Below, one piece after another: positions 4,710-38,200 of a DNA stretch of 38,200 bases. This DNA comes from a virus (lineage: Duplodnaviria > Heunggongvirae > Uroviricota > Caudoviricetes), in IMG/VR virus record IMGVR_UViG_2703719355_000022, positions 1 through 38,200 of that record; one strand, given 5' to 3'. Each line of letters opens with the position of its first letter. Position 1 is the first letter of the stretch. Made by a program: the position numbers and the translations under genes. The notes under the pieces are model-generated. The model saw nothing but the letters and a program-made list of their open reading frames with translations. It searched no databases and had not been told where the DNA came from.

Positions 4710-4744
4710 CAAAAAAAGCGCCCACTAGAGGCGCTTTAATTTTA
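4710..4744. terminator. bidirectional rho-independent terminator between convergent helicase and endolysin genes
   Basis: AGCGCC-7 nt loop-GGCGCT hairpin flanked by an A-run upstream and a T-rich run downstream. Confidence 0.6.
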
Positions 4745-5095
4745 TCCATGCCAGCGTGATTTTTTTGACCTGCTGTCGATGTGTGTAAAGGTTTTATATT
4801 TGCCTAAGCCGTATTGATTAGGATATTTCCCGTCAAGATAAGCATGGACAATATCAGGCGAGACGCCTTTCACTACAATATCAACCGCACGGCCTCGAAC
4901 ATGGTAGCTATTGGTTGCACCGCCTACATTCTTGTTATGAGTCGGACAACGGTTCCCGCTGTTAATAATTACTGGTTTCCCGAAGTGTTCGCGTACATCC
5001 TCAAGAATTACCAGCAGTTCAGCGTCGATAGTATCATAATCACATTTTCCGCATTTACATTTAAATTCCTTGCGAGAAAAATGCTTGCTTAACAT
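4742..5095 (-). CDS. peptidase M15-family cell-wall hydrolase (putative endolysin)
   Basis: Motifs HFSRKEF, SGNRCPTHN, SYHVRGRAVD and FTHID typical of zinc D-Ala-D-Ala carboxypeptidase-like phage lysins; first ATG at 5095 preceded by AAGGGGG (track start at 5131 is TTG). Confidence 0.6.
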   Translation of the reverse strand: MLSKHFSRKEFKCKCGKCDYDTIDAELLVILEDVREHFGKPVIINSGNRCPTHNKNVGGATNSYHVRGRAVDIVVKGVSPDIVHAYLDGKYPNQYGLGKYKTFTHIDSRSKKSRWHG

Positions 5096-5105
5096 ATTAC
5101 CCCCT

Positions 5106-5453
5106 TTAGATGTATTGCATAAGATACCCAATAAATCTGAGTCCCTTAATGTAATAAGGTGCTGTGCCTATGCATACCGCTCGTGCATCACCAATACAAT
5201 TGAAGTTGTAAGGGTTAACTACATCAATCTCCTGCCCTACACGGAAGCGGTATTTAGGACGTTTAGCGAGTGTCGCAACACAAAACACTAACCCATTACC
5301 ATCATCGCGGATCATTTGCTTGAATTGTTTATGCTTTACTCTCTTCGCCTCGTAATCAAGTGTCATTGATTCAGGGCTAATGCCATTGATAAAAATACCG
5401 GAAAGCTGGTCGACCGGATAAGTAGGAAATTCAGTGAAAATATTTTTAGCCAT
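5106..5453 (-). CDS. hypothetical protein (115 aa)
   Basis: ORF with GGGGG ribosome-binding motif 5 nt upstream of the ATG; no recognised domain. Confidence 0.45.
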   Translation of the reverse strand: MAKNIFTEFPTYPVDQLSGIFINGISPESMTLDYEAKRVKHKQFKQMIRDDGNGLVFCVATLAKRPKYRFRVGQEIDVVNPYNFNCIGDARAVCIGTAPYYIKGLRFIGYLMQYI

Positions 5454-5491
5454 GTTATACCCCCATAAGATTCTATGAGGGTATTTATGGA

Positions 5492-6097
5492 TTAAACGAA
5501 GTTGATTTTACCCATGAAGTGCTTTTTCATCTTCTTCTGGATATTCTTCTTCATCGTTTTCTCATTATCTTTCCAACTACCCATGATGTTACTACGGTCT
5601 GTTTTCTTCAACACTGCAACAAGTCGCTTCCCTAGCTTTTTCTTGTTCTTCATGTCGGCTTTAACGGATGGATCGAGAAGCAGTATTTTACCAGTCTTAG
5701 ATTTTGTGGTTACATACTTCCCTATTTTCTTACCGTTTCTGAGTTGTGGAATGTTACCAAACTGGTTAGTTCGGTCATCAGTTACAGGAACAAATTTCTC
5801 AATATTATTACCACCTTCAAAGTAATATTTTAAGTATTTTTCCTGATTCTTCATGATGAAAACACTATGGTAAGACGTTTTACCGCTTGAGCGTATCCGG
5901 TTGTATGAATTGACCGCTTTCTGTGTGAACTTGGTCGGTCGATCTATCCTTGAATTGACTTTCTTCTGCAACTTTACCCGCTCATCTATGACCGCTAAAC
6001 CCAAATCCCTATGAAAGCTATTACTAGCTTTCTGTTTCCAACTCTTGATATCTTTTTTTACTTTATCAATATTGGATGTGATTATTGGATTAGCCAT
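5492..6097 (-). CDS. hypothetical lysine-rich basic protein (201 aa)
   Basis: ORF with AGGGGG ribosome-binding motif; very Lys-rich composition; function unknown. Confidence 0.45.
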   Translation of the reverse strand: MANPIITSNIDKVKKDIKSWKQKASNSFHRDLGLAVIDERVKLQKKVNSRIDRPTKFTQKAVNSYNRIRSSGKTSYHSVFIMKNQEKYLKYYFEGGNNIEKFVPVTDDRTNQFGNIPQLRNGKKIGKYVTTKSKTGKILLLDPSVKADMKNKKKLGKRLVAVLKKTDRSNIMGSWKDNEKTMKKNIQKKMKKHFMGKINFV

Positions 6098-6098
6098 G

Positions 6099-6269
6099 TT
6101 AGCCCCCTAATAACGAAAAGACCCCCGCCAGTGTCCTGAGTAATTGTTCATCCACGGTCATAGCCGGGAGTTCAAGCCCAAAGGACGTAAGCAGAGGTCT
6201 AATTGCTACGTTATAAGTGAGGGCGATAATCAAGAGATAACCAAAATATTTCTTAAGTTTATTCTTCAT
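6099..6269 (-). CDS. small membrane protein (56 aa), possibly lysis-associated
   Basis: Internal ATG at 6269 with AAGGGGTG upstream; N-terminal hydrophobic helix YFGYLLIIALTYNVAI; no lipobox. Confidence 0.35.
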   Translation of the reverse strand: MKNKLKKYFGYLLIIALTYNVAIRPLLTSFGLELPAMTVDEQLLRTLAGVFSLLGG

Positions 6270-6288
6270 ATATTCACCCCTTTTATTA

Positions 6289-6567
6289 TTATTTTTGTCT
6301 AAGTAAATCGATAACTTGGTCAAATTTGGCGTCCATCGCAACCACTTTCTTCTCTATACCGTGTAGTGTTTGTTCCATTTGGTAAACACGTTCAGCAATC
6401 TGAGTATGGTTATTCTGCATCGTCTCAAACTTCTGGTTTAACAATGCGTCGCTGGATTCCAATTTCGACAATCTATTTTCAGTTGCTAATTGATTTCGGT
6501 GAAGTCTCCAAAGACCACCACAAATTAAGGCGATAACACCGATACCGCCATATATAATTTCAGTCAT
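6289..6567 (-). CDS. membrane protein with one N-terminal TM helix and a coiled coil (holin- or i-spanin-like)
   Basis: N-terminal IIYGGIGVIALICGGLW followed by heptad-like charged region; position between tail tip gene and lysin. Confidence 0.4.
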   Translation of the reverse strand: MTEIIYGGIGVIALICGGLWRLHRNQLATENRLSKLESSDALLNQKFETMQNNHTQIAERVYQMEQTLHGIEKKVVAMDAKFDQVIDLLRQK

Positions 6568-6672: not shown

Positions 6673-9600
6673 TTAAGAAACAGTAATACCAGTAGTGGCT
6701 TTTTTAGTTACCATTACTGTTAAATCACTGATCCATGTGCTAGGCGTCCAGTTGTTGATTGCGCTTGATTGCACTTCAAAGGTCAAGGTCACAGCACCTT
6801 TACCCGCTGGCATATCAATAACACCTGAGTAAAGACCAGTATTACCGCCATACGCCCTATTATACAACTCTGACCCATTCTTACGAACAATCAGGCGACA
6901 GGTGTCGTAATAGGTATTATTGTTCGACCCTTCACGCGCTCGCAATCCACCAAAACTAACAGCCGGAATAACGATTTGACGATCGAACTTGTGATCATCT
7001 TCAACGCGAACAGTGACCGTTCCCTGTGGATAACCAGCATAACCATTATCAACGTTAACATCACGATGCGGGAACTTACGTCCAATCACCTTAACGAAAT
7101 CACCCTTAACCTGAGTAGCTTCAAGCATACCCTTAATAACACAGCTAGAGTTAATCGTGACGTTGTTCAGAGTACCAGAATCAGCCGTGATATTACCTTT
7201 AACGGTAGCGTTCATGAACGTAGCGGACCCGTTCTTGTTGATATGCCATCCGGTCGATCCGTTCCAGTCGGAAGACTGGATATAGTTACCGATTTTAGCG
7301 TTATCAATTGCACCGTTTACGATCTTGGCATTGGTGATCGCGCCGTCTTGGATTTTCGCTGAATTGATCGCAGCATTGCCGATTTTAGCCGTGGTAATCG
7401 CCGCATCATTAATCTGGGCTGTACCAATTGCAGCATTACGAATCATCGCATTATCGAGATAAACCTTGTTACCTTCGATACCAAACGGGCATACTTCCGA
7501 TCCGTTCTGTGGAGCTACCGCGATTTTATCAGCATTAAAGATGATTCTCGTCGGTTGCGCCGGATCGTTGGTTGCGCTCATGTGAATACCAGCCACGCGA
7601 CCATCTGCATTAACTGCCAGATTATATTTGCTGTTAATGGTTCCTTTCAAAGCATCGATTTTTACATCTGCTTCCTGATTCACGCCAGCAATCTTGCCAT
7701 CCATTTCTACCCGAACTTGATCAATCTTGCTTGCGCTTGCTGCCTCACTGGTAGCAATTGCTTGTTTCAGGGTAGTAGCAGATGCGCTGACTTCGGATTT
7801 AATATCGCCTTTCAGTTCAGCTTTAACCTGATCAATCTTAGTGGAGCTAGCTTGCTCGCTGGTAGCAATCAGACTCTTTAAGGTATCGGCTGAGGCTTGA
7901 ACAGTTTTACCCGTCTCGGTAGTGATTTGCTTATGCATTGCATCAATTTTAGCATCGGCATTAGCGCCAGCTTGAGCAATAGCATCCGCGATAGTTTCAT
8001 CTAAGCGGTCTTGTAAACCAATCAGGTCTTCCAGTGCTTCTTTGTCCTGATCGTCCCAGCTAATTGTAGATCTCATTTGCATGAAATAAGGTTCAGACCA
8101 AACAGCATCATCCATACCGAAAATATCGTAATGTGCCGCACGAAGATAATAATCACCATCAGCCAAATCAAAGGAAGTATGGCTAACACTATTCGTGCTT
8201 ACTGCCCTTGCATCGGAGAAAGTGTTATCGGTTGCATACTGGATGATTGACCCTGCATAATCATGTTCTACGTCATCTGCCCAGCTAACAAACACACTAT
8301 TAAAGCCACCACGCGCACTAAAACCTTTCATTGGCTTATGTTGTGGGTTGATAGCCACTAAACGCGCTGGGGCGCTCTCTGAGTTGTTATAGCCCTTAGC
8401 CGATACTTCTACCGTCAGTTGACGCGAAAGGCCGTTAAACTGGTTCATATCAAGCGTATAAGTCCATGATTCAGGATCGCGGGTACGGTACTGAATAGAC
8501 TTACCAGCCTTGTTAGTCACCTTGATAATGTATGCTTCAAACAGGTCACTAAACTTGTTAGTTTCACCGTTGATCTCAACATCTAATTGTTGCTGATTTT
8601 CCCATTCGATAATCAGATCATTACCTTCGAAAGTCCCTGGCGTGCTACCCTGATTTTTGATTCGAATAACCGGAGTCGGCAATTCATAGGTAACAGTCGG
8701 ATTCTGGTTAATCAGTTCTACCCAATCGGATCGAGCGATGATACCGAAAGCACAAACTCGGTAATCGTAAGAGCGATCTTTTGCCAGTGCATTGACATTG
8801 AAGATTTGCTGTGAAGTCTGTCCCAGCTTAATCCAGTTAGGTGATCCGCTTACACGGTAATCAATCTGGAAACCATAACGGTTAAAATCTTCCGGTGCAT
8901 CCCATGTCAAAGTAACGTTTTTACCGTAAATCGTCTCGCCAGTTGCCTTAATTCTGAAATTAGTAGGCTTCTGTAATGTCATTGAATCCGGTAAACCACT
9001 TGGTCTATTGTCCGGTTTAGCCGCATAATCCAGATCTGTGTAAATCTGAGAATTATATTCTGTGGCGGTGATAGACAAAATACCAGCAATACCAGAATCA
9101 ATGCTACGCTCAATAGAGATAATACGCCAAAGTGAATTATTCAGTTTCAATTCATCGTGGGTAACGCTGATAACGTCCCAAACTTCCGCGCTGAATGCAT
9201 CGGTAGTAGTGAAGTTGATAACCTGAGTAATACGAGATTTATTTCGTTCAATGCTCGCTAATTTGTCAATCTGGTTTTCATCTTTAACAAAGCGATATTC
9301 TACGTCTTTAGCAATAATGCGCCCATCTTGACGGATAGTAGCATCATTTTCAGCATCAGCCGGATAACGTAGCATTTGCTCTGAATAGTCTAAAGATGGT
9401 TCCTGATAGATTGCGTTAATGGTATTGAAATAACCGTTAGTGCCACCTGTTTTCAGGTTAACTTTCCCCATCATTATATTGTCTTCATTGAAGGTATGTT
9501 TAACAATATCAGGAGCATCCAGTTTCAGTGTAATACGTCCAAAGGATTCAAACATTACCCCGCCGAAAGTCTGCATCAATCCGGTCAAGTTCTCTTTAAA

Positions 9601-10455
9601 GCTGGCGTTCGGATCACATGCACCGTTAGAGTGCAAATTCATCTGGCGAACTTGAGAACGTACTTTCAGGAATGAATCAACGTTAATGTTTTCAATTGGT
9701 ACTGATAAACCATATTTTTCATTTGTTAGGTAGTGGAAAATCTGGTCCACGCCGTTAGTGCTAGCCTCAATAGCATTGGTTTCAAGGTTACGAATCTTTA
9801 ATCCGCAAACGTCTACTGCTACCTGGCTATTTGGCTGGAGAATATCAACACCAGCAGCAAGAGATTTGTCATCACGACGTAACACAATACACATGGTTGC
9901 AATGCCGTTACCCTTGTAAGCATCGGTCCAGTCTGAGCCTAAATGAGTTTTTGCCAGTGACAATGCGGTGTTAGGATTCTTACCCGTGCGGAACTCGACT
10001 TCTAACACTTTACGGTATTCTTCTTTAATGTTGCCCTTATCGAGAATGCCATCACGGATCGTCATGTTTCGACCAATCAGCACGTTTTTATTATCGATGA
10101 ATAGTGCTTTGTAATGGTCAATTTCACCCTCGGCAATTGCGAAGATTTGCACTAACTTATTGTTTTCTTTCTTAGAAATTGCTTTGTAAACACAGATAGC
10201 ACCAGTTCGAGTAGTACCAAAAATAACTGGTAATACTGTTTTAGGATCGTTTGATGTTCCTAGTGTCACTGCGTTATCTGGGCTTTGTACCTTCGGTGTT
10301 TTCGGTGCGCCTACAGTGGAAGCAATCAAAGACAATGCACCAGCACCAATACCGATAGCAACAGCCGCTAATGTTGAAATTGCCGCCACGGAAGCAGCAG
10401 CCATCCCAGCCGACGCACCAGCAATAACCGCGCCGACCAATACTTCTACGCCCAT
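6673..10455 (-). CDS. tail tip central fiber / host specificity protein (lambda J-like), 1260 aa
   Basis: C-terminal ~150 aa match my recollection of lambda J (DDHKFDRQIVIPAVSFGG, VIDMPAGKGAVTLTFEV, ending GITVS); fibronectin-III-like central region; ATG overlaps the stop of the upstream gene. Confidence 0.85.
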   Translation of the reverse strand: MGVEVLVGAVIAGASAGMAAASVAAISTLAAVAIGIGAGALSLIASTVGAPKTPKVQSPDNAVTLGTSNDPKTVLPVIFGTTRTGAICVYKAISKKENNKLVQIFAIAEGEIDHYKALFIDNKNVLIGRNMTIRDGILDKGNIKEEYRKVLEVEFRTGKNPNTALSLAKTHLGSDWTDAYKGNGIATMCIVLRRDDKSLAAGVDILQPNSQVAVDVCGLKIRNLETNAIEASTNGVDQIFHYLTNEKYGLSVPIENINVDSFLKVRSQVRQMNLHSNGACDPNASFKENLTGLMQTFGGVMFESFGRITLKLDAPDIVKHTFNEDNIMMGKVNLKTGGTNGYFNTINAIYQEPSLDYSEQMLRYPADAENDATIRQDGRIIAKDVEYRFVKDENQIDKLASIERNKSRITQVINFTTTDAFSAEVWDVISVTHDELKLNNSLWRIISIERSIDSGIAGILSITATEYNSQIYTDLDYAAKPDNRPSGLPDSMTLQKPTNFRIKATGETIYGKNVTLTWDAPEDFNRYGFQIDYRVSGSPNWIKLGQTSQQIFNVNALAKDRSYDYRVCAFGIIARSDWVELINQNPTVTYELPTPVIRIKNQGSTPGTFEGNDLIIEWENQQQLDVEINGETNKFSDLFEAYIIKVTNKAGKSIQYRTRDPESWTYTLDMNQFNGLSRQLTVEVSAKGYNNSESAPARLVAINPQHKPMKGFSARGGFNSVFVSWADDVEHDYAGSIIQYATDNTFSDARAVSTNSVSHTSFDLADGDYYLRAAHYDIFGMDDAVWSEPYFMQMRSTISWDDQDKEALEDLIGLQDRLDETIADAIAQAGANADAKIDAMHKQITTETGKTVQASADTLKSLIATSEQASSTKIDQVKAELKGDIKSEVSASATTLKQAIATSEAASASKIDQVRVEMDGKIAGVNQEADVKIDALKGTINSKYNLAVNADGRVAGIHMSATNDPAQPTRIIFNADKIAVAPQNGSEVCPFGIEGNKVYLDNAMIRNAAIGTAQINDAAITTAKIGNAAINSAKIQDGAITNAKIVNGAIDNAKIGNYIQSSDWNGSTGWHINKNGSATFMNATVKGNITADSGTLNNVTINSSCVIKGMLEATQVKGDFVKVIGRKFPHRDVNVDNGYAGYPQGTVTVRVEDDHKFDRQIVIPAVSFGGLRAREGSNNNTYYDTCRLIVRKNGSELYNRAYGGNTGLYSGVIDMPAGKGAVTLTFEVQSSAINNWTPSTWISDLTVMVTKKATTGITVS

Positions 10456-26337: not shown

Positions 26338-28266
26338 TTAAAAGTTATTTACCCACCCACCACGACGCACAGGACGCGCCATAGGACGACGATTAGGTTT
26401 GTGATGAGTGATTGGCTTAGTTTCTTCGATTTGCTCGTTAGAATGTGATTTAGGAGCTTCTACGGTTGCTTCTGGTTCACGATTCAGCTTTTCTTTCATT
26501 GCAATGAGCTTATCCCATGACATTTTTGAAAGAACATAGCGAGAAGCCGCATAGCTATAAACCAGACAGTCGAGCGCCTCGTTTCGTGTCGCACCTGGAT
26601 TTTTTACCCAACGTGTTCCAGTAACAGTACGCTTGATGGATTCACTCAAAAGCTGATCGAGATAATCATCAGGAACGGTTTCTGATATCTCTAAACCAAT
26701 ATGAGGGTTTTCTTTCAAGTTGCGTGTTAATAGCTCACGAATAGCCGTTTTACCCACGTTAACGCCCAACATAAGCAACTCATGACCGCCCGTGGTAGTT
26801 GGTTTCACTGGAATGATTGGAGCAGTACCAGATGAACTACCTTTGATTGCGTGTAAGTTCTTCCACTTACCACCGCAAATACGGTATCCGGCTTGAGTGA
26901 ATCGACCGTTCGATGTATCAAGGAAGCTGGCGAGCATAGGAACACGATCACCCGATACAGTAGTAAATTTGGTTTTATGGAAGTTGATTAATCTGTCCCA
27001 TACAGGAGATTCATATCGTTCACAGTTATGGTCGTAAAAGCTGCGATGATCCAGAATATAAATCTTATCCTTTGCCACGCCCATGATCGTAGTTTCTGCG
27101 CGATCTAATTGCTGGTCAGTACCCGCACACAAGAAAATCACGTCATCAGGGATATTCTCGATAGAAACATCTGTTTTAAGTTCTTCCAGTTCGTTTACTT
27201 CTACTGCCGTTTCCTGATCATCGTATACAGTGCCGAGAACGGTATTATAAAAACTTTGTAAATCAAATGTTTGCCACGCTTGAGAGAAGTCAGAGACACA
27301 TGCTTTGATAGAGCTAAAAGGTGAATATAGACGGCTGATCCAGAATCCTGCTACATCACTTTCACGGGTAGCTCTCCATTCACCTTGTGCAACCGCTCTA
27401 ATGCGATCCCCTTCTGACCAATCAGTCTGGCAATGAGGACACACATAACGGGCGCTTTCAACACATGGCAGATTGCGACCATCCTGATTTTTCCACTCGA
27501 ACTTAACATTTTCCCACTCGATCACCTGGTGTTTCCCGCAATGCGGACAAGGAACAAAGAATTTACGCTGATCACTTGATAACCATTGTTGATTAATCGG
27601 TCCCAGCTTAGTGGTCGGGGTACTGGAAACGATAATTCTTGCTTCATCCCCGAAAGTGGTTGCGCGGTTAGCCGCAAGTGCAATCGGATCGCCCTCTTCA
27701 CTAGCACTGGCAGCATCACATTCATCGAGCAGAATCAACGGGCTGGTTTTTGAACGCAAGGTTGATGGGCTAGTAAGCGATACCATGTAAAGAAAATGAT
27801 TAGTCTTAAGCTGAATCTGACTATTGTTATTAACAGCGTTGCGATCATTCTTGTCGGTGATTGCTTCGCGTAATGCCGGACATGCTTCAATGGCTGGTCG
27901 GATCTTCCCGCTTAGGTACTGAGCGGTTTCCTTCGTGGTTGCTTGGCCTATGATGATATTGCTGGGATCGTTAGCTATCTTATTGAATAATATACCATTA
28001 AGGATGGAAGTTTTGCCGATCTGGGCACTTGTACAAAAAATGTACTTTTTCTTATTCTCTAAGAAAGGAGCATCAATCATGCCTTTCTGAAAGCTGGTTA
28101 ATTTAATTTTAGCGCCAGCTTGTGGTCCATCCACTAGGATCATGTTTTCCTCGCACCATTCAGATGGTAAACGCTTAATTGGCGGTCGGATATGTTTTGA
28201 TACTTCGTTAAAAATTCGCTTGAGTTTAAATTTATTTGAGAGTTTTTTCACCGTGATTATCCTCAT
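26338..28266 (-). CDS. terminase large subunit, lambda gpA family, 642 aa
   Basis: Motifs [29 protein letters not shown] and C-terminal RNEALDC recall lambda gpA; Walker A-like GKTS; first gene of the minus-strand operon. Confidence 0.9.
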
Positions 28267-31868: not shown

Positions 31869-32153
31869 AGTGGAAATCCTCTAAAAGAAAGTGAATCAAT
31901 CTAATATTATTTATAAAGAGAAAATTCTTGTTATTATGGAAAGAGTGGTCTGGTAGAGTCCAAAACTGGTCTGTACTTGAAAGGTGATTGGATTCAGTCG
32001 GGCTAGCCCTCCTTCATAGATTTGATTAAATCATCACCAAAACGAAGAAGTATCTTTATAATATAAGAATCTTTCTTTTGTAGAAATAATAATCGAACAA
32101 GATGGACGCTCCCTGAGCGTCTGCGAAGCATATCTAATTCCTTCCAGTATCAT

Positions 32154-32242
32154 CAAAGTGATCTAGAATCAGTTTGTTTTAAAGTGATTGTAATACCTTT
32201 ATCTTGGAAGTGATTTAACTACCATCTTCAAAGTGATCTTGA
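32154..32242 (+). repeat. four direct copies of AAGTGAT(Y)T spaced 24-26 bp
   Basis: GTGAT cores at 32158, 32184, 32209, 32233; outer copies are the near-identical 19-mers TCAAAGTGATCT(A/T)GAATCA. Confidence 0.6.
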
Positions 32243-32316
32243 ATCATCATGTTAAAATCCCTTCCTGAATGATTCGAAGCAGATTACTCGCGCCCCGCAG
32301 GGCGCATAATATCTTT

Positions 32317-32354
32317 GTAGGTATATTGGTTTGATGGTATGTAGGTATATTGGT
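32317..32354 (+). repeat. direct repeat GTAGGTATATTGGT x2 (24-bp period)
   Basis: Identical 14-mers at 32317-32330 and 32341-32354; preceded by palindrome GCGCCC-CGCA-GGGCGC at 32290-32305. Confidence 0.6.
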
Positions 32355-32408
32355 CTGTAGGTCTGGATCGCTTCTAAGCCCCGTCATTACTGGTTTCCCC
32401 ACTTTGAA

Positions 32409-32662
32409 ACGGGGACGGGAAAGAGACGGGGAAGGGATACCACGGGGACAGGTCGGGGATAACATGGGGATGATACGGGGACACCACGGGGAAAGCATTT
32501 AAAATCATATCCTTACATAAGAATACGCATCTAATACCGGGGATTTTACGCGGGGATGGCGGGGAAACTACCCTAATCCGGGGGATTTTGCTTCCAAAAC
32601 GGGGATGAACGCGGGGACGGTGACGGGGATACATCTTCTAAAGTGGGGATATCGCGGGGAAA
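32409..32662 (+). repeat. G-rich array of at least 16 same-orientation CGGGGA motifs, first seven largely phased at 11 bp
   Basis: GGGGA starts at 32411, 32428, 32444, 32455, 32466, 32477, 32488, 32539, 32552, 32561, 32581, 32601, 32613, 32625, 32645, 32656; flanked downstream by an AT-rich stretch. Confidence 0.8.
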
Positions 32663-32865
32663 CCTTTAAATTCATTCAAATATTTTGATAGAAAATTCTT
32701 GTATATTATTTAACCAAAAAATCATCAAAAATCGCTGTAACTTAATGATTTAAAAGGGATTATCAAAAGGTCGCCGTGCTATAATAGGTTATAAAGGTTG
32801 ATAATCATTATTCGCCATTTTCACACAAAAATTTTGATAGCCTTTTCTCGCTTGGGTCAAGTGTG

Positions 32866-32894
32866 TTGACTTCTGTCAAGGATTATTTTATACT
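32866..32894 (+). promoter_or_regulatory. sigma70-type promoter (TTGACT-17-TATACT) reading into the plus-strand early genes
   Basis: -35 at 32866-32871, -10 at 32889-32894; flanked by GTCAA/TTGAC half-sites at 32856-32879. Confidence 0.55.
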
Positions 32895-33029
32895 TTTTCT
32901 CGTTGGTAGGGGTTGAAATTTTCAAAACAGTCCCCATATAGATGATAAGCAAGATTTTCTCTCTACTAAATACATGTGAGAAATGATTGTTCACTTCTGA
33001 AAATCTCCTGATTCACTGTTAATTAATAC

Positions 33030-33058
33030 AGCACTGGTTAGATATACAGTGCTTTTTT
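33030..33058 (+). terminator. hairpin plus T-run (AGCACTG-N10-CAGTGCT-TTTTTT); terminator or attenuator
   Basis: 7-bp stem followed by six T; a similar hairpin CCACTG-N11-CAGTGG-TTTT at 33117-33145. Confidence 0.5.
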
Positions 33059-33236
33059 GGTTGAATAATGTACGAATTGATTAATTATTAATCTTCTCTT
33101 TAGCAATTCGTGCTCCCACTGATCGGATATACAGTGGTTTTACAGGGTTTTCTGAAATGACTTTTATAAATAGAAGTATCAAGGGCGAAAAGCTCTTTTT
33201 ATGAGAAAAAATAATCCACATTGTAGAGGATGTAAC

Positions 33237-33518: not shown

Positions 33519-34532
33519 ATGAAACAAAATAACTTCTCTATTACCGTTTACAGCAACACCGCAGACACCGCAAAATATCAGTACGATGCAGATATCGAAA
33601 TTCGTAACTATGGCAGCAACGAAGCCGACGAATTAACTATTGGCACTAATATTTATAAAGAAGAATCTATCGATTCTCTGTACACCACTCTCTATCATGC
33701 TGGTTCCGACTGGAAAAAAGAATACCGTGGTTTAGAGCGTAAGAAAGCTACTTTGAAAGCAATGGTTAAACCAGACCAGCGCGAAGTATATGCTATCGCT
33801 TACAAGAACGGCGACGAATCCTATGTAGTGTCTATCCTGCAAGATGAAGCTGGTAGCCTCTGGGGTAACATGATCCACGCTTCCCGCCGCGATGCTAAAG
33901 GCCGTTTCGTTAATGGTAAAGTTAAAAACTTTGCTCTGGCTTCTAGTGTTGTTGGTGCATGGTCTGATTGTGCTCACGGTGAGAAATTCAATATTTCTTT
34001 CTTCGTTTCCAACAAAGCTAAACTGAATGTTAACGCTGTTGATAAGGCAGTATGGAAAGAAACCACTAAAGAAAAAACCGTTTCCAACTACGAAGAAGAA
34101 TTACAGCAGCGTGATATTCAGATTCTGTCTGATGCGCATCGTGCTTTTGAGCAACGTCTTGCTGAGATGGAACGCAAATTCGCTATGCTGATGGAAGAAA
34201 ACATTAGTCTGAAAAAAGAAATTGAAGTTCTTGAAATCCGTGTAGAAGAACTGGAAGCAAAAGAAGTTAAAGCGCCGGAAGTTAAAGAAGTTGAAGCGGT
34301 AGCAGTAGTTCCGGCAGCTACCCAGGAAGAAGCGAAAGAAGAAAAAGAAGCACCGGAGGCGGTTACTGTTGATCAGCCGATTATCAAACCAGCGTTAACC
34401 GTAGTTTCTTGTGATATTTCTGATGCCAGCTTAAACAACCTTCTTGATGTAGAAGAAGGATATAAACCATATGTTCCAACCATTCCGGCTATGGATGAGA
34501 TGGACCGCGAATTACTTGATTTTGCAGCTTAA
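33519..34532 (+). CDS. hypothetical protein with central coiled coil and acidic C-terminal tail, 337 aa
   Basis: AAGGAA ribosome-binding motif; heptad-like region around residues 190-250; C-terminus MDEMDRELLDFAA; function unknown. Confidence 0.5.
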   Translation: MKQNNFSITVYSNTADTAKYQYDADIEIRNYGSNEADELTIGTNIYKEESIDSLYTTLYHAGSDWKKEYRGLERKKATLKAMVKPDQREVYAIAYKNGDESYVVSILQDEAGSLWGNMIHASRRDAKGRFVNGKVKNFALASSVVGAWSDCAHGEKFNISFFVSNKAKLNVNAVDKAVWKETTKEKTVSNYEEELQQRDIQILSDAHRAFEQRLAEMERKFAMLMEENISLKKEIEVLEIRVEELEAKEVKAPEVKEVEAVAVVPAATQEEAKEEKEAPEAVTVDQPIIKPALTVVSCDISDASLNNLLDVEEGYKPYVPTIPAMDEMDRELLDFAA

Positions 34533-34559: not shown

Positions 34560-35561
34560 ATGAACATTTACGCAATCGACAACAAAAAACTCAACAAAGA
34601 AGAAACTGAATCACTGGTAAACGTTCGTCTGACCTCCACCTTTGACGGTGGAGTTACCGCAAACTTCAAATTCACCGATAATCTTAACGGCGGTGATTAT
34701 TATCAGGAATTGTTTTCTATTCAGAATCCCCGCGCTAAAGATTCTGAGAATGTCATTAAAGAAATCATGAAACACGGTATCAAGCTGACGGTAGAAGAAC
34801 ATACTATGATTAACAGCTTCATCAATAAAACTGGTGATCGTCTGGTTTATTCTGTGGTTGGTTATGAACTTAGTGGGTTTTACGATGAAGAGAAGAAAGG
34901 CGTTGCTATGGTTGTGATTAGCCGTGGTGGCGTCGCTACTGTCTTCGCTTTTGGTAATGTTGTTCAGGGTACGCCGAAAACATCAAACGTTTATACGATC
35001 CGCATTAAAGAAAATAGCTATTGCCGTTATAATCTGGCTTTGGTGTCTACCGACGATAACAGCGTTGAACTTAGCGACATGAAATCCTACACCTTCCCTA
35101 TCGATGTGGAAGGCAATTTAGGAAAAACTGTGTTTCAATTCTATGTGACAAAACCTAAAGTTCCAGCATGTATTGAAGACCACGACCATCAAGTTTGTGC
35201 ATATAAAGCCAATCTGGAAGCGATTAAGGCCAAAGAGAAAGCAGAGCAGGAAGAACGGGATCGCCCACGTAAAGAAGCAGAGGCACAAGCAAAACAGCTT
35301 CTAGGCCGATTTAACAGCATGAAGACTAAGATCAAGAATGCTAAAACGTGGGAAGATGCGGTTAAGTTCTATCATCAAGCTAATATTCTTTTGGTTGAAG
35401 TAGAAGAAGCGCGGGATCTGTGGGCTAGCTTAGATAAGAAGTACGCGCAACGTAGATCGCCAGCAACCTTACAGCCGATTGATGAACTGTGCAAACTTCC
35501 TAAGCCAGAAATTAAACATGAAATTAAGAAAGCAAGACCTACCCTTCGTTTGGTTGCTTAA
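34560..35561 (+). CDS. hypothetical protein, 333 aa
   Basis: AGAGGAA ribosome-binding motif; Lys/Glu-rich helical C-terminus; no recognised domain. Confidence 0.5.
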   Translation: MNIYAIDNKKLNKEETESLVNVRLTSTFDGGVTANFKFTDNLNGGDYYQELFSIQNPRAKDSENVIKEIMKHGIKLTVEEHTMINSFINKTGDRLVYSVVGYELSGFYDEEKKGVAMVVISRGGVATVFAFGNVVQGTPKTSNVYTIRIKENSYCRYNLALVSTDDNSVELSDMKSYTFPIDVEGNLGKTVFQFYVTKPKVPACIEDHDHQVCAYKANLEAIKAKEKAEQEERDRPRKEAEAQAKQLLGRFNSMKTKIKNAKTWEDAVKFYHQANILLVEVEEARDLWASLDKKYAQRRSPATLQPIDELCKLPKPEIKHEIKKARPTLRLVA

Positions 35562-36278: not shown

Positions 36279-36836
36279 TTACGACACATCAAATTCATCG
36301 TCTTCTTGTTCTTCTTCCGGTTCTTCCTGCTTCACTTCCTCATCTTCTGAGTATTCATCGTAGGCATCAAGATCCGGTGAAATCATAATATCCCCGATCT
36401 CATTCAAACGAGCGGAAATGATATCCTTCAATGTTTCTTTCAAAGTACGCTGATCCGTTGCAGCTTCCATAATTTTTAGAGTGTCTACCGTCGCCATCTG
36501 CATCATGGTCTGGCGTACATCACCACAAAATCCGGCTAGAACTGTTTCTACATAACCTACAGGAATCAGATCATTTAGTTCGGTGCGGTTCTTAAGTTCG
36601 ATGGCGTCCGCCTCCCCTCTCGCCTTTCTTAATCGTTCTTGTTGGATCTGCGCTTGTACATCAACTTCCCTAAGTGGGCTGATTATGTTTTCAATTACCC
36701 AGGTGATTGCTCTATCCCGTGGACAACGGCGGGTATTCGTATTATACGGAAGACCACGATCACGCCATTTCTGAACAGCCGGAAGGGAATACCCATACAT
36801 TTTAGATAATTCGGTTAAAGTTACTTCTTGCGTCAT
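36279..36836 (-). CDS. terminase small subunit, lambda Nu1-like, 185 aa
   Basis: N-terminal TLTELSKMYGYSLPAVQKWRDRGLPY and central ARGEADAIELKNR...YVETVLAGFCGDV match my recollection of lambda Nu1; ATG at 36836 with AGAGGA upstream; acidic C-terminus. Confidence 0.7.
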   Translation of the reverse strand: MTQEVTLTELSKMYGYSLPAVQKWRDRGLPYNTNTRRCPRDRAITWVIENIISPLREVDVQAQIQQERLRKARGEADAIELKNRTELNDLIPVGYVETVLAGFCGDVRQTMMQMATVDTLKIMEAATDQRTLKETLKDIISARLNEIGDIMISPDLDAYDEYSEDEEVKQEEPEEEQEDDEFDVS

Positions 36837-37169
36837 GAAACTATCCTCTGAGCTAAAAATATGCGTAATTGTATTTAGACGAAATACGCAATATAACGGC
36901 CTATAACGCAATTTAAGAAAATCCCATGTGACGGGGCGTTGAGAAGTGATTTAGCTCGTTGTAGGGCTTGTTTGGTGGCTTAACTAAACCAATTTGAAAA
37001 AGGCACAAGCGAGATTTAAACCGCGCCGGGCAAAACACGCCCTCTTTTACCACTTATCACAGCACCTTTCTGTTGTCAAGTCTTTTTTATCGAATATTTT
37101 AAATTTTTTCATCTTTTTTCTCGTGCATTCATCCGTTTTTTTCTCGGTCAAAATCAATGACTTGACCCG

Positions 37170-37197
37170 TTGACACTGATCCGGTCATCAATATAAT
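37170..37197 (+). promoter_or_regulatory. consensus sigma70 promoter (TTGACA-16-TATAAT) upstream of the lipoprotein gene
   Basis: -35 at 37170-37175, -10 at 37192-37197; GGAGG ribosome-binding motif before ATG at 37314. Confidence 0.6.
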
Positions 37198-37313
37198 CGG
37201 TCACACTTTGACCATGTAAGGTGTGTTTCAGATGTGAGGATTAACGATAGATATTTACATAAATAAAGATGTGGTTAATCCATTCATCAATTTAATTCTC
37301 TGGAGGATATTCT

Positions 37314-37886
37314 ATGTTTAAAAAGATTGGTGTTATTGCTGCGGTTGTTCTGTTATCTGGTTGTGCGTCTATGGCTGAACTTGAAAAGCGTAGTGATGGT
37401 CTTTCGGCTTATCCTGGCATCAAGTATGAACAGTTTCAGGGGTATGAGATTGTAAGTAGCTATACAACTACAAAGGCAACTCGCCCATATAACAAACTTA
37501 AAATGCAATCCTGTCTCTATGACACTGTGCGTAATGACATTATGGTGCATACTGACGCATTCAATGAGATTAAAGATTTAGAAACTGGTGGTCGTATTGT
37601 TGAACGCGCCCGTTCTAATAGTGCTATTTTTAGTGGCAACTTCGAGCAAACTATTACCTTGCGTACTATTGTAGGTGACACTCCCTATACTCAATATGTG
37701 AAGTATAAAGGTATTGCTTTACCGTCCGGTGATAAGACACAGTTCACATTTACCGGATTGAGTGTTAAGCCTAAATCTGGTGGCGAGCATCCACTATGGT
37801 CACGTAAAACAAATAGCCCAGAAGAAAGTATTAAAGAACTTGATAAGCTGGCGGATGAGATTGCCGATTGTCTTAATGATGAATAA
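37314..37886 (+). CDS. lipoprotein (signal peptide with lipobox LLSGC), 190 aa
   Basis: N-terminus MFKKIGVIAAVVLLSGCAS: basic n-region, hydrophobic core, lipobox Cys; no Asp at +2; own promoter and terminator. Confidence 0.7.
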   Translation: MFKKIGVIAAVVLLSGCASMAELEKRSDGLSAYPGIKYEQFQGYEIVSSYTTTKATRPYNKLKMQSCLYDTVRNDIMVHTDAFNEIKDLETGGRIVERARSNSAIFSGNFEQTITLRTIVGDTPYTQYVKYKGIALPSGDKTQFTFTGLSVKPKSGGEHPLWSRKTNSPEESIKELDKLADEIADCLNDE

Positions 37887-37903
37887 AGAATAACTGATTA
37901 TAT

Positions 37904-37929
37904 AGCCTCGCTAAATGCGGGGCTTTTTT
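37904..37929 (+). terminator. rho-independent terminator after the lipoprotein gene
   Basis: AGCCTCGC-TAAAT-GCGGGGCT hairpin followed by TTTTTT. Confidence 0.6.
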
Positions 37930-37969
37930 GTGTCTAAATACCATCAAGTTAATTGATGAGGAACACGAC

Positions 37970-38200
37970 ATGACCAAAGAAGAATTTTTGAAGCTGTCCG
38001 TTAAAGAGCAGAAGTCACTGGTTAACACCATGCTTAGTGAGCGTGGCTGGAAGCTGGTTGAAACAGAAGAGTATGGAACTGATTGGCATCAACGGATCAT
38101 GATCATCAATACTGGTGGTGATGAATGGCGTGATTGGTGTCTTCGTACTGTTACCCCGCTTTCCCTTGTTACTGGCGTTGGCTTTCTGGAAAGAGAGTAA
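37970..38200 (+). CDS. hypothetical small protein, 76 aa
   Basis: ATG at 37970 with GAGGAA upstream; stop TAA at the last three bases of the window. Confidence 0.4.
   Translation: MTKEEFLKLSVKEQKSLVNTMLSERGWKLVETEEYGTDWHQRIMIINTGGDEWRDWCLRTVTPLSLVTGVGFLERE

Follow-up and report, generated by a model that had tools for sequence, protein, structure and literature searches.

What does an isolated lipoprotein gene with a consensus promoter and its own terminator do at the end of a prophage, and for whom? The question is raised by the right end of IMG/VR virus record IMGVR_UViG_2703719355_000022, a stretch of 38,200 nucleotides (nt), hereafter the window, which is an Escherichia coli prophage inserted in the gene hicB and matches, at 98.6% identity, the hicB-splitting region of E. 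coli RMDEC332. The lipoprotein gene is the penultimate gene of this prophage, ahead of the truncated hicB. An earlier sequence-only reading had described it as a self-contained moron, i.e. an add-on gene, beginning at 36912 and of a kind that often mediates superinfection exclusion. The anatomy and accessory status of the transcription unit can be given with high confidence. The best explanation overall, an accessory moron-type unit encoding an exclusion lipoprotein that acts at the envelope, has about an even chance of being correct.

A sigma-70 promoter with the full consensus, TTGACA-16-TATAAT, lies on the plus strand at 37170..37197 (TTGACA at 37170-37175, TATAAT at 37192-37197), with a predicted start site at approximately 37204 and 117 nt 5' of the lipoprotein gene. 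The perfect promoter claimed by the sequence-only reading is therefore present, and it is the sole 12/12 match in the window, against a chance expectation of 0.03 and an occurrence in 3 of 100 shuffles. The same promoter serves an unrelated gene in E. coli STEC1575, where a prophage of the same type is inserted in ycdX and the intergenic DNA proximal to terS, the small terminase gene, is 79% identical to window positions 36830-37216. This homology ends at approximately 37216, beyond which STEC1575 has its own cargo, an unrelated tail-anchored protein of 187 residues with one C-terminal membrane segment (L050, 3111-3674), behind the same consensus promoter and flanking inverted repeats. The promoter hexamers and repeat arms are identical between the two prophages and the spacer between the hexamers has diverged, a pattern that is typical of a working promoter.

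Because the promoter and its inverted repeats accompany unrelated cargo in STEC1575, the sequence comparison identifies the promoter as residing permanently in the slot that separates terS from the attachment site, rather than travelling with the gene. Likewise, as the homology stops at approximately 37216, the swappable cargo is delimited by comparison to a cassette at approximately 37217-37930, comprising a leader, a GGAGG motif, a prolipoprotein gene of 190 codons and an intrinsic terminator. The description as a moron accordingly survives in part: a consensus promoter, ribosome-binding site, open reading frame (ORF) and terminator are all there and the unit is accessory, but it is not supported as self-contained, since the promoter and inverted repeats are common to a prophage with other cargo. 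The left boundary at 36912 was an error, being only the point to which terS extends when it is read from a TTG too far upstream, and 36912-37140 belongs to the backbone upstream of that gene. Promoters are also found before homologues of the lipoprotein gene in divergent prophages, namely TTGACA-16-TATAAT in L010 (12/12), TTGACA-16-TACAAT in L008 (11/12) and TTGACA-17-TATCAT in L002 (11/12).

The gene is accessory. A TerS profile search of IMG/VR returned 28 loci with a related TerS, only one of which, the near-identical one, contains the lipoprotein, the other 27 holding other cargo or none; a TerS scan of genome contigs gave no match. Among 5426 complete E. coli genomes, the lipoprotein unit occurs in one and DNA of the TerS type in 57. 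This absence from most related prophages, together with the classic moron positions held by homologues in unrelated phages, bears out the earlier view of a moron-type add-on. The divergent prophages L002, L008 and L010 hold the gene in the same place, with lipoproteins that are 50-65% identical and TerS proteins that are 50-56% identical. The database start of the L010 homologue (P0009, 10001-10615) is approximately 10-14 codons too far upstream; its GGAGG motif and the alignment favour an internal Met, giving a protein of 190 residues like the rest of the subfamily.

Other occupants of the slot are varied. In L021 and L023-L030 it is filled by a secreted protein of 255-264 residues with an LprI (lysozyme-inhibitor) domain, which shows that the slot collects envelope- or periplasm-directed cargo. 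Some relatives have a protein of 101 residues, and others a small membrane protein adjoining an fljA-like repressor gene and a flagellin gene. The latter pair, seen in L033-L038 just past the terS slot, consists of a flagellin gene and an FljA-like repressor of phase-1 flagellin (PF03614, E-value 3e-64), and may be either antigen-switching prophage cargo or flanking host genes. In L031 the slot is empty, with terS followed by approximately 300 nt and then a truncated ycdX.

The lipoprotein gene itself occupies 37314..37886 on the plus strand, from an ATG at 37314 to a TAA ending at 37886, and is preceded by a GGAGG ribosome-binding site at 37302..37306, 7 nt before the ATG. Its product is a precursor of 190 residues, of which residues 1-16 form the signal peptide, MFKKIGVIAAVVLLSG|C, whose N-terminal region is positively charged and whose lipobox, LLSG|C, fits the lipoprotein pattern [LVI][ASTVI][GAS]C; the lipidated residue would be Cys17, encoded at 37362-37364. 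The residues that follow are Ala at +2 and Ser at +3, with no Asp retention signal, so that outer-membrane sorting is predicted by the Lol rule. The ribosome-binding site, reading frame, lipobox and predicted sorting were thus all found as first described. The mature protein has 174 residues and a mass of approximately 19 kDa, and contains two invariant cysteines, Cys67 (37512-14) and Cys186 (37869-71), which probably form a periplasmic disulfide linking the helix of residues 61-71 to the C-terminal helix.

Transcription would end at an intrinsic terminator on the plus strand at 37904..37930, AGCCTCGC-TAAAT-GCGGGGCT followed by six T residues, in which a GC-rich stem of 8 bp encloses a loop of 5 nt. 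Its folding free energy of -15.5 kcal/mol and z-score of -3.2 uphold the strong terminator that had been noted from the sequence. Terminators also lie 3' of the homologues in L002, where the terminator is itself homologous, and in L011, L043 and L045.

The regulatory features proposed around the promoter required some revision. The sequence-only reading had pointed to an 8-bp inverted repeat between promoter and start codon as a possible operator. This repeat is indeed present, with GGATTAAC at 37238-45, GTTAATCC at 37274-81 and 28 nt between them, and lies in the cargo-specific 5' leader (37217..37313, plus strand, approximately 110 nt) that also contains the GGAGG motif. However, an equivalent inverted repeat occurs in 7% of the 116-nt tiles of the window and in 9% of Markov-random 116-mers, the repeat falls far downstream of the predicted start site, at approximately +35 to +78 of the transcript, and it is not found in the homologous leaders of L002, L008 and L010. 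The leader folds no better than shuffled sequences (z-score -0.89), RNAalifold gave no conserved structure or covariation across the leaders, and there was no Rfam match. The repeat was consequently ruled out both as an operator and as an RNA element.

Two other inverted repeats are better operator candidates on the sequence evidence. The first, GGTCAA-N10-TTGACC, lies at 37146..37167, just 5' of the -35 hexamer, and both of its arms are identical in STEC1575; the second, GGTCA-N5-TGACC, spans the predicted start site at 37199..37213, and its arms are kept in STEC1575, where homology ends just after it. The five GGTCA or TGACC pentamers in 37146-37213 form a cluster that is unique in the window and was reached in none of 300 shuffles, a statistic that is indicative only, as the motif was chosen post hoc. 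There was no second such cluster elsewhere in the window, and a link to the phage repressor could not be made. The retention of a promoter in place while its cargo is exchanged is in itself a useful detail on the evolution of prophage-end cargo slots.

The protein belongs to a small family. The window protein has no match in Pfam, NCBIfam, PADLOC or the sequences of the Protein Data Bank (PDB), and its sole library match was phrog_29243 (E-value 1.9e-12, residues 3-188 aligned to positions 2-200 of the 202-position profile), a family without an assigned function. Exhaustive and profile searches of 5.8 billion proteins placed the family at approximately 20 clusters at 90% identity. Neither GenBank phage records, searched at the DNA level and by tblastn with the window protein, P0006 and P0010, nor plasmids gave a match. 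A phmmer match, P0007, was discarded as spurious, being a eukaryotic transporter with low-complexity repeats. The lipobox cysteine is kept in all 17 full-length members, and an alignment of 18 sequences shows conservation of this residue, Cys67, Gly108 and Cys186. The +2 residue across the family is mostly Ala and never Asp, with Val, Ser or Thr in P0015, P0018, P0019 and P0022, and homologues give a weak match to LPAM_1. Orthologues that are 50-65% identical retain the lipobox, the cysteines and the C-terminus, a clear sequence signature of purifying selection on the protein.

All the family contexts examined were phage or prophage, and the gene was accessory throughout. In a Krischvirus contig (an RB49-like T-even coliphage), a homologue is precisely swapped for a 63-residue ORF of phage kaaroe and is preceded by an early-type promoter, TTGACA-17-TAGTAT. 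Between gpI and gpJ of a lambda-like tail module lies homologue P0010, immediately 5' of gpJ and followed by a terminator. Among HK97-like prophages, those of E. coli, Pectobacterium and Raoultella have a homologue placed between tail chaperone G/T and the tape measure gene, and this homologue has a G+C content of 37-40% against 50-54% in its flanks, a contrast characteristic of morons; a promoter and/or terminator flanks it, with L043 having both a 10/12 promoter and a strong terminator. The homologue from Orbus adjoins prophage remnants.

An AlphaFold model of the window protein was of good quality (predicted local distance difference test score, pLDDT, 88; predicted template-modelling score, pTM, 0.82) and consists of an alpha/beta helix-grip (TBP-like) domain, an assignment with which Foldseek agrees and which places the model among DUF4468/BamC-like helix-grip folds. 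The template-modelling (TM) scores of the fold matches are low, at 0.33-0.5, and sequence identities are 5-13%; none of Llp, Rtp45, Bor or TraT was among these matches. The link to the TBP-like DUF4468 proteins (PF14730) of Bacteroidales (PDB 4e6f, 4jhy) is supported by the UniRef name of family member P0014, 'DUF4468 domain-containing', and by a phage DUF4468 protein being the top match of the viral fold search. On the other hand, none of seven family members scanned matched the Pfam model, even at E-values up to 1, and DUF4468 has no known function, so that the match is silent on mechanism. The N-terminal domain of BamC resembles the model in having the helix-grip fold.

The mechanism that would best accommodate these observations begins with the slot-resident consensus promoter, which would drive the swappable cassette. 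By established lipoprotein biology, the precursor would pass through the Sec pathway, acquire its lipid at Cys17 and lose its signal peptide to signal peptidase II, and the mature part of approximately 19 kDa would fold as the DUF4468/BamC-like helix-grip domain. The lipoprotein would then act on a component of the envelope, such that incoming phages would be hindered in adsorption to, or DNA entry into, the lysogen or infected cell. The presence of a homologue in a strictly virulent T-even phage, behind an early-type promoter, favours a phage-centred role over lysogenic conversion, and a phage-centred role at the envelope is further suggested by the HK97 gene-15 position of some homologues and by the one homologue beside gpJ. 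Within such roles, superinfection exclusion or receptor masking appears to be the most economical function. By analogy, a logic like that of Llp, Cor and Rtp45 executed by an unrelated protein can be put forward tentatively, at somewhat less than even probability.

The tail-tip protein of the window phage carries, at 6673-10455, the C-terminal receptor-binding domain of lambda J. Lambda J binds the outer-membrane protein LamB, and the domain thus suggests that the receptor of the window phage is an outer-membrane protein.

Among the closest known systems is gene 15 of phage HK97, the original moron, for which exclusion is proven (Juhala et al. 2000; Cumby et al. 2012; reviewed in PMC3594210). 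It shares with the window gene the status of an add-on with a promoter ahead of it, a terminator of its own and a product that is, or is predicted to be, an envelope protein, and its exact position is held, with strong GC contrast, by lipoprotein homologues in HK97-like prophages. The proteins differ in kind: HK97 gp15, small and YebO-like, resides in the inner membrane and prevents DNA entry, whereas the window protein is a predicted outer-membrane lipoprotein of 19 kDa with an unrelated sequence. Further, the window gene lies at the prophage end rather than in the tail operon, and the promoter before it also precedes other cargo in STEC1575.

A further comparison is with the receptor-masking exclusion lipoproteins Llp of T5, Cor of phi80, N15 and T1, and Rtp45 of Rtp. 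These too are encoded by phages and, as is predicted for the window family, are anchored in the outer membrane on its periplasmic side and made either early in infection or by the prophage. The genes llp and cor are placed close to receptor-binding genes, as is the homologue P0010 by its position immediately before gpJ, but the window gene is not adjacent to its tail-tip gene. Llp and Rtp45 are proteins of approximately 6-7 kDa and the receptor-masking class as a whole is of approximately 6-8 kDa (PMC12685063; PMC9586334), whereas the mature window protein, at 174 residues, falls outside this small size, has no sequence match to them and does not find them among its fold matches.

Several observations weigh against an exclusion function. 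Sequence and fold searches gave no homology to proven exclusion proteins, and the globular protein of approximately 19 kDa is much at odds with the approximately 6-8 kDa of known receptor-masking lipoproteins (PMC12685063). The window gene does not adjoin receptor-binding genes, and its GC content of 40.0%, against 41.6% for the window, lacks at this locus the contrast expected of a moron. The modelled fold, shared with DUF4468, the BamC N-domain and SRPBCC-like proteins, would carry no specific functional implication. Expression in the lysogen is predicted from promoter quality alone, and repression under some conditions may be indicated by the pair of conserved inverted repeats that flank the promoter.

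The strongest competing explanation is that the lipoprotein is a factor for lysogenic conversion or host fitness, altering the outer membrane for the benefit of the bacterium (serum or complement resistance, adhesion, or tolerance of colicins, lysozyme or type VI effectors) with no direct anti-phage role. A location at the prophage end, in a cargo slot whose strong promoter is probably constitutive, would suit such a function, and the same slot in relatives contains the LprI-domain protein or adjoins flagellin and fljA-like genes, all of which relate to host phenotype. Lambda Bor supplies a precedent for a moron-encoded lipoprotein of this type (PMC3594210), since Bor/Iss, as the window protein is predicted to be, is an outer-membrane lipoprotein from a prophage moron, expressed in the lysogen. 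However, Bor is a protein of 97 residues that confers serum resistance and has no Pfam or sequence relation to the window protein, which matches neither the Bor nor the TraT family in Pfam, and the window family, unlike Bor, is also found in a virulent T-even phage. Conversion would be of no obvious value to the virulent Krischvirus, which carries its family member behind an early-type promoter, and the family is very rare. A host-fitness role is thus unlikely, albeit the least so of the alternatives.

Less probable again, with a small chance only, is that the helix-grip domain mimics BamC-type domains and binds the outer-membrane machines BAM, Lpt or Lol, thereby aiding lysis timing, vesiculation or release, or countering an envelope-based defence. 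The predicted location of the lipoprotein, the inner leaflet of the outer membrane, is where BamC is anchored, and the lysis cassette at 4742-6567 showed no Rz1-like lipoprotein. Yet the TM-scores of 0.33-0.5 are accompanied by approximately 10% identity, the fold is common to many unrelated proteins (KA1, SRPBCC, Bet v 1), and the gene is dispensable in most relatives. Moreover, the protein is larger and more globular than an o-spanin would be, lacks a C-terminal membrane segment and is encoded outside the lysis cassette, and the Krischvirus carrier has a spanin of its own.

It is very unlikely that the lipoprotein is a mere passenger behind a promoter kept for a backbone purpose, either transcription across the attachment site to the integrase after circularization or activation of the adjacent packaging region. 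The promoter and inverted repeats are kept independently of the cargo, a transcript formed after excision would run towards the ORFs of the left end and the serine recombinase gene (1248-2942), and the promoter adjoins the conserved region upstream of terS, all of which would be expected from such an arrangement. Nevertheless, a strong terminator directly follows the gene and another, at 1214-1243, precedes the recombinase, 27 IMG/VR relatives have no promoter of at least 10/12 at the slot, and the purifying selection described above acts on the protein itself. A spanin role was rejected outright on the grounds of size, fold (globular, with an amphipathic C-terminal helix), promoter type, the distance of 31 kb to the lysis genes at 4742-6567 and the spanin already encoded by Krischvirus.

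The exclusion reading keeps its place ahead of these alternatives, and the gene fits a known kind, the moron-encoded lipoprotein. A stronger version of this reading would see a new family of phage-borne outer-membrane lipoproteins of approximately 19 kDa with a DUF4468/BamC-like fold and a conserved disulfide, which exclude phages via a beta-barrel or an assembly machine and hop as cassettes between temperate siphophages and virulent T-even phages, coupled with a regulated 'expression socket' (the promoter and two operators) kept by the lineage for swapped cargo; this more ambitious combination is possible but rather doubtful. Morons for envelope proteins are a main route by which prophages alter the phage sensitivity and surface properties of their hosts, and most have no known function. 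The small size of the present family, its confinement to phages of enterobacteria and relatives, its textbook moron positions and its confident structural model make it a tractable family in which to look for a new mechanism of exclusion. Exclusion, if true, would employ a protein three times as large as the receptor-masking lipoproteins known so far; absent any phage phenotype, the gene would be one more hypothetical lipoprotein moron.

The large terminase of the phage is of the lambda gpA type, with a best match of only 45% identity, and there is no close cultured relative. The left prophage end has a large serine recombinase at 1248-2942. The interrupted hicB is the antitoxin gene of the hicAB toxin-antitoxin pair and is found at the window ends, in L001 (21495-21806) and in L041 (22824-22943), whereas ycdX is the insertion site in relatives with a different recombinase target (L002, L008, L010, L031 and L050). 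Downstream of the terminator, orf76 at 37970..38200 on the plus strand closes the prophage next to the truncated hicB and lacks a dedicated promoter.

The divergent neighbour on the other side, outside the lipoprotein unit, is terS at 36279..36836 on the minus strand, which encodes a Nu1-like small terminase and starts at the ATG at 36836. Its identity is supported by a match to phrog_57 (E-value 5.5e-18) and by annotation as a terminase small subunit in RMDEC332; the match to Phage_Nu1 (E-value 1e-4, 22.3 bits) is below the 30-bit cut-off. The non-coding backbone 5' of terS at 36837..37140, including a patch at 37059-37120, is conserved in L002, in the cargo-less prophage L031 and in STEC1575, and sequence conservation makes it a possible TerS-binding or cos region, the cos role being the more conjectural. 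Three repeats of the ACGCAAT/ATTACGC type, 25-80 nt upstream of the terS ATG, and a GC-rich near-palindrome in the otherwise AT-rich spacer (window 36860-36916 and 37009-37043) are both kept in L002, L031 and STEC1575 and are candidates for a cosB-like TerS-binding site and the cos cleavage region.

The large and small terminase genes (26338-28266 and 36279-36836) share a strand but are separated by 8 kb, which is unusual for a terminase of the lambda type, and the interval contains Rha-family regulators and rightward genes without an assigned function. Flanked by the Rha-type regulator block on one side and the rightward genes on the other, approximately 20 copies of CGGGGA with 11-nt phasing occupy 32405-32670, inside a stretch of approximately 1.3 kb (31869-33200) with no convincing ORF, an array that resembles iterons or a centromere. 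Two adjoining rightward genes at 33519-34532 and 34560-35561, of approximately 335 codons each, have no above-threshold family match in Pfam, PHROGs, NCBIfam or PADLOC; their products end in tails that are coiled-coil, acidic and of low complexity, and the genes are followed by strong terminator-like hairpins.

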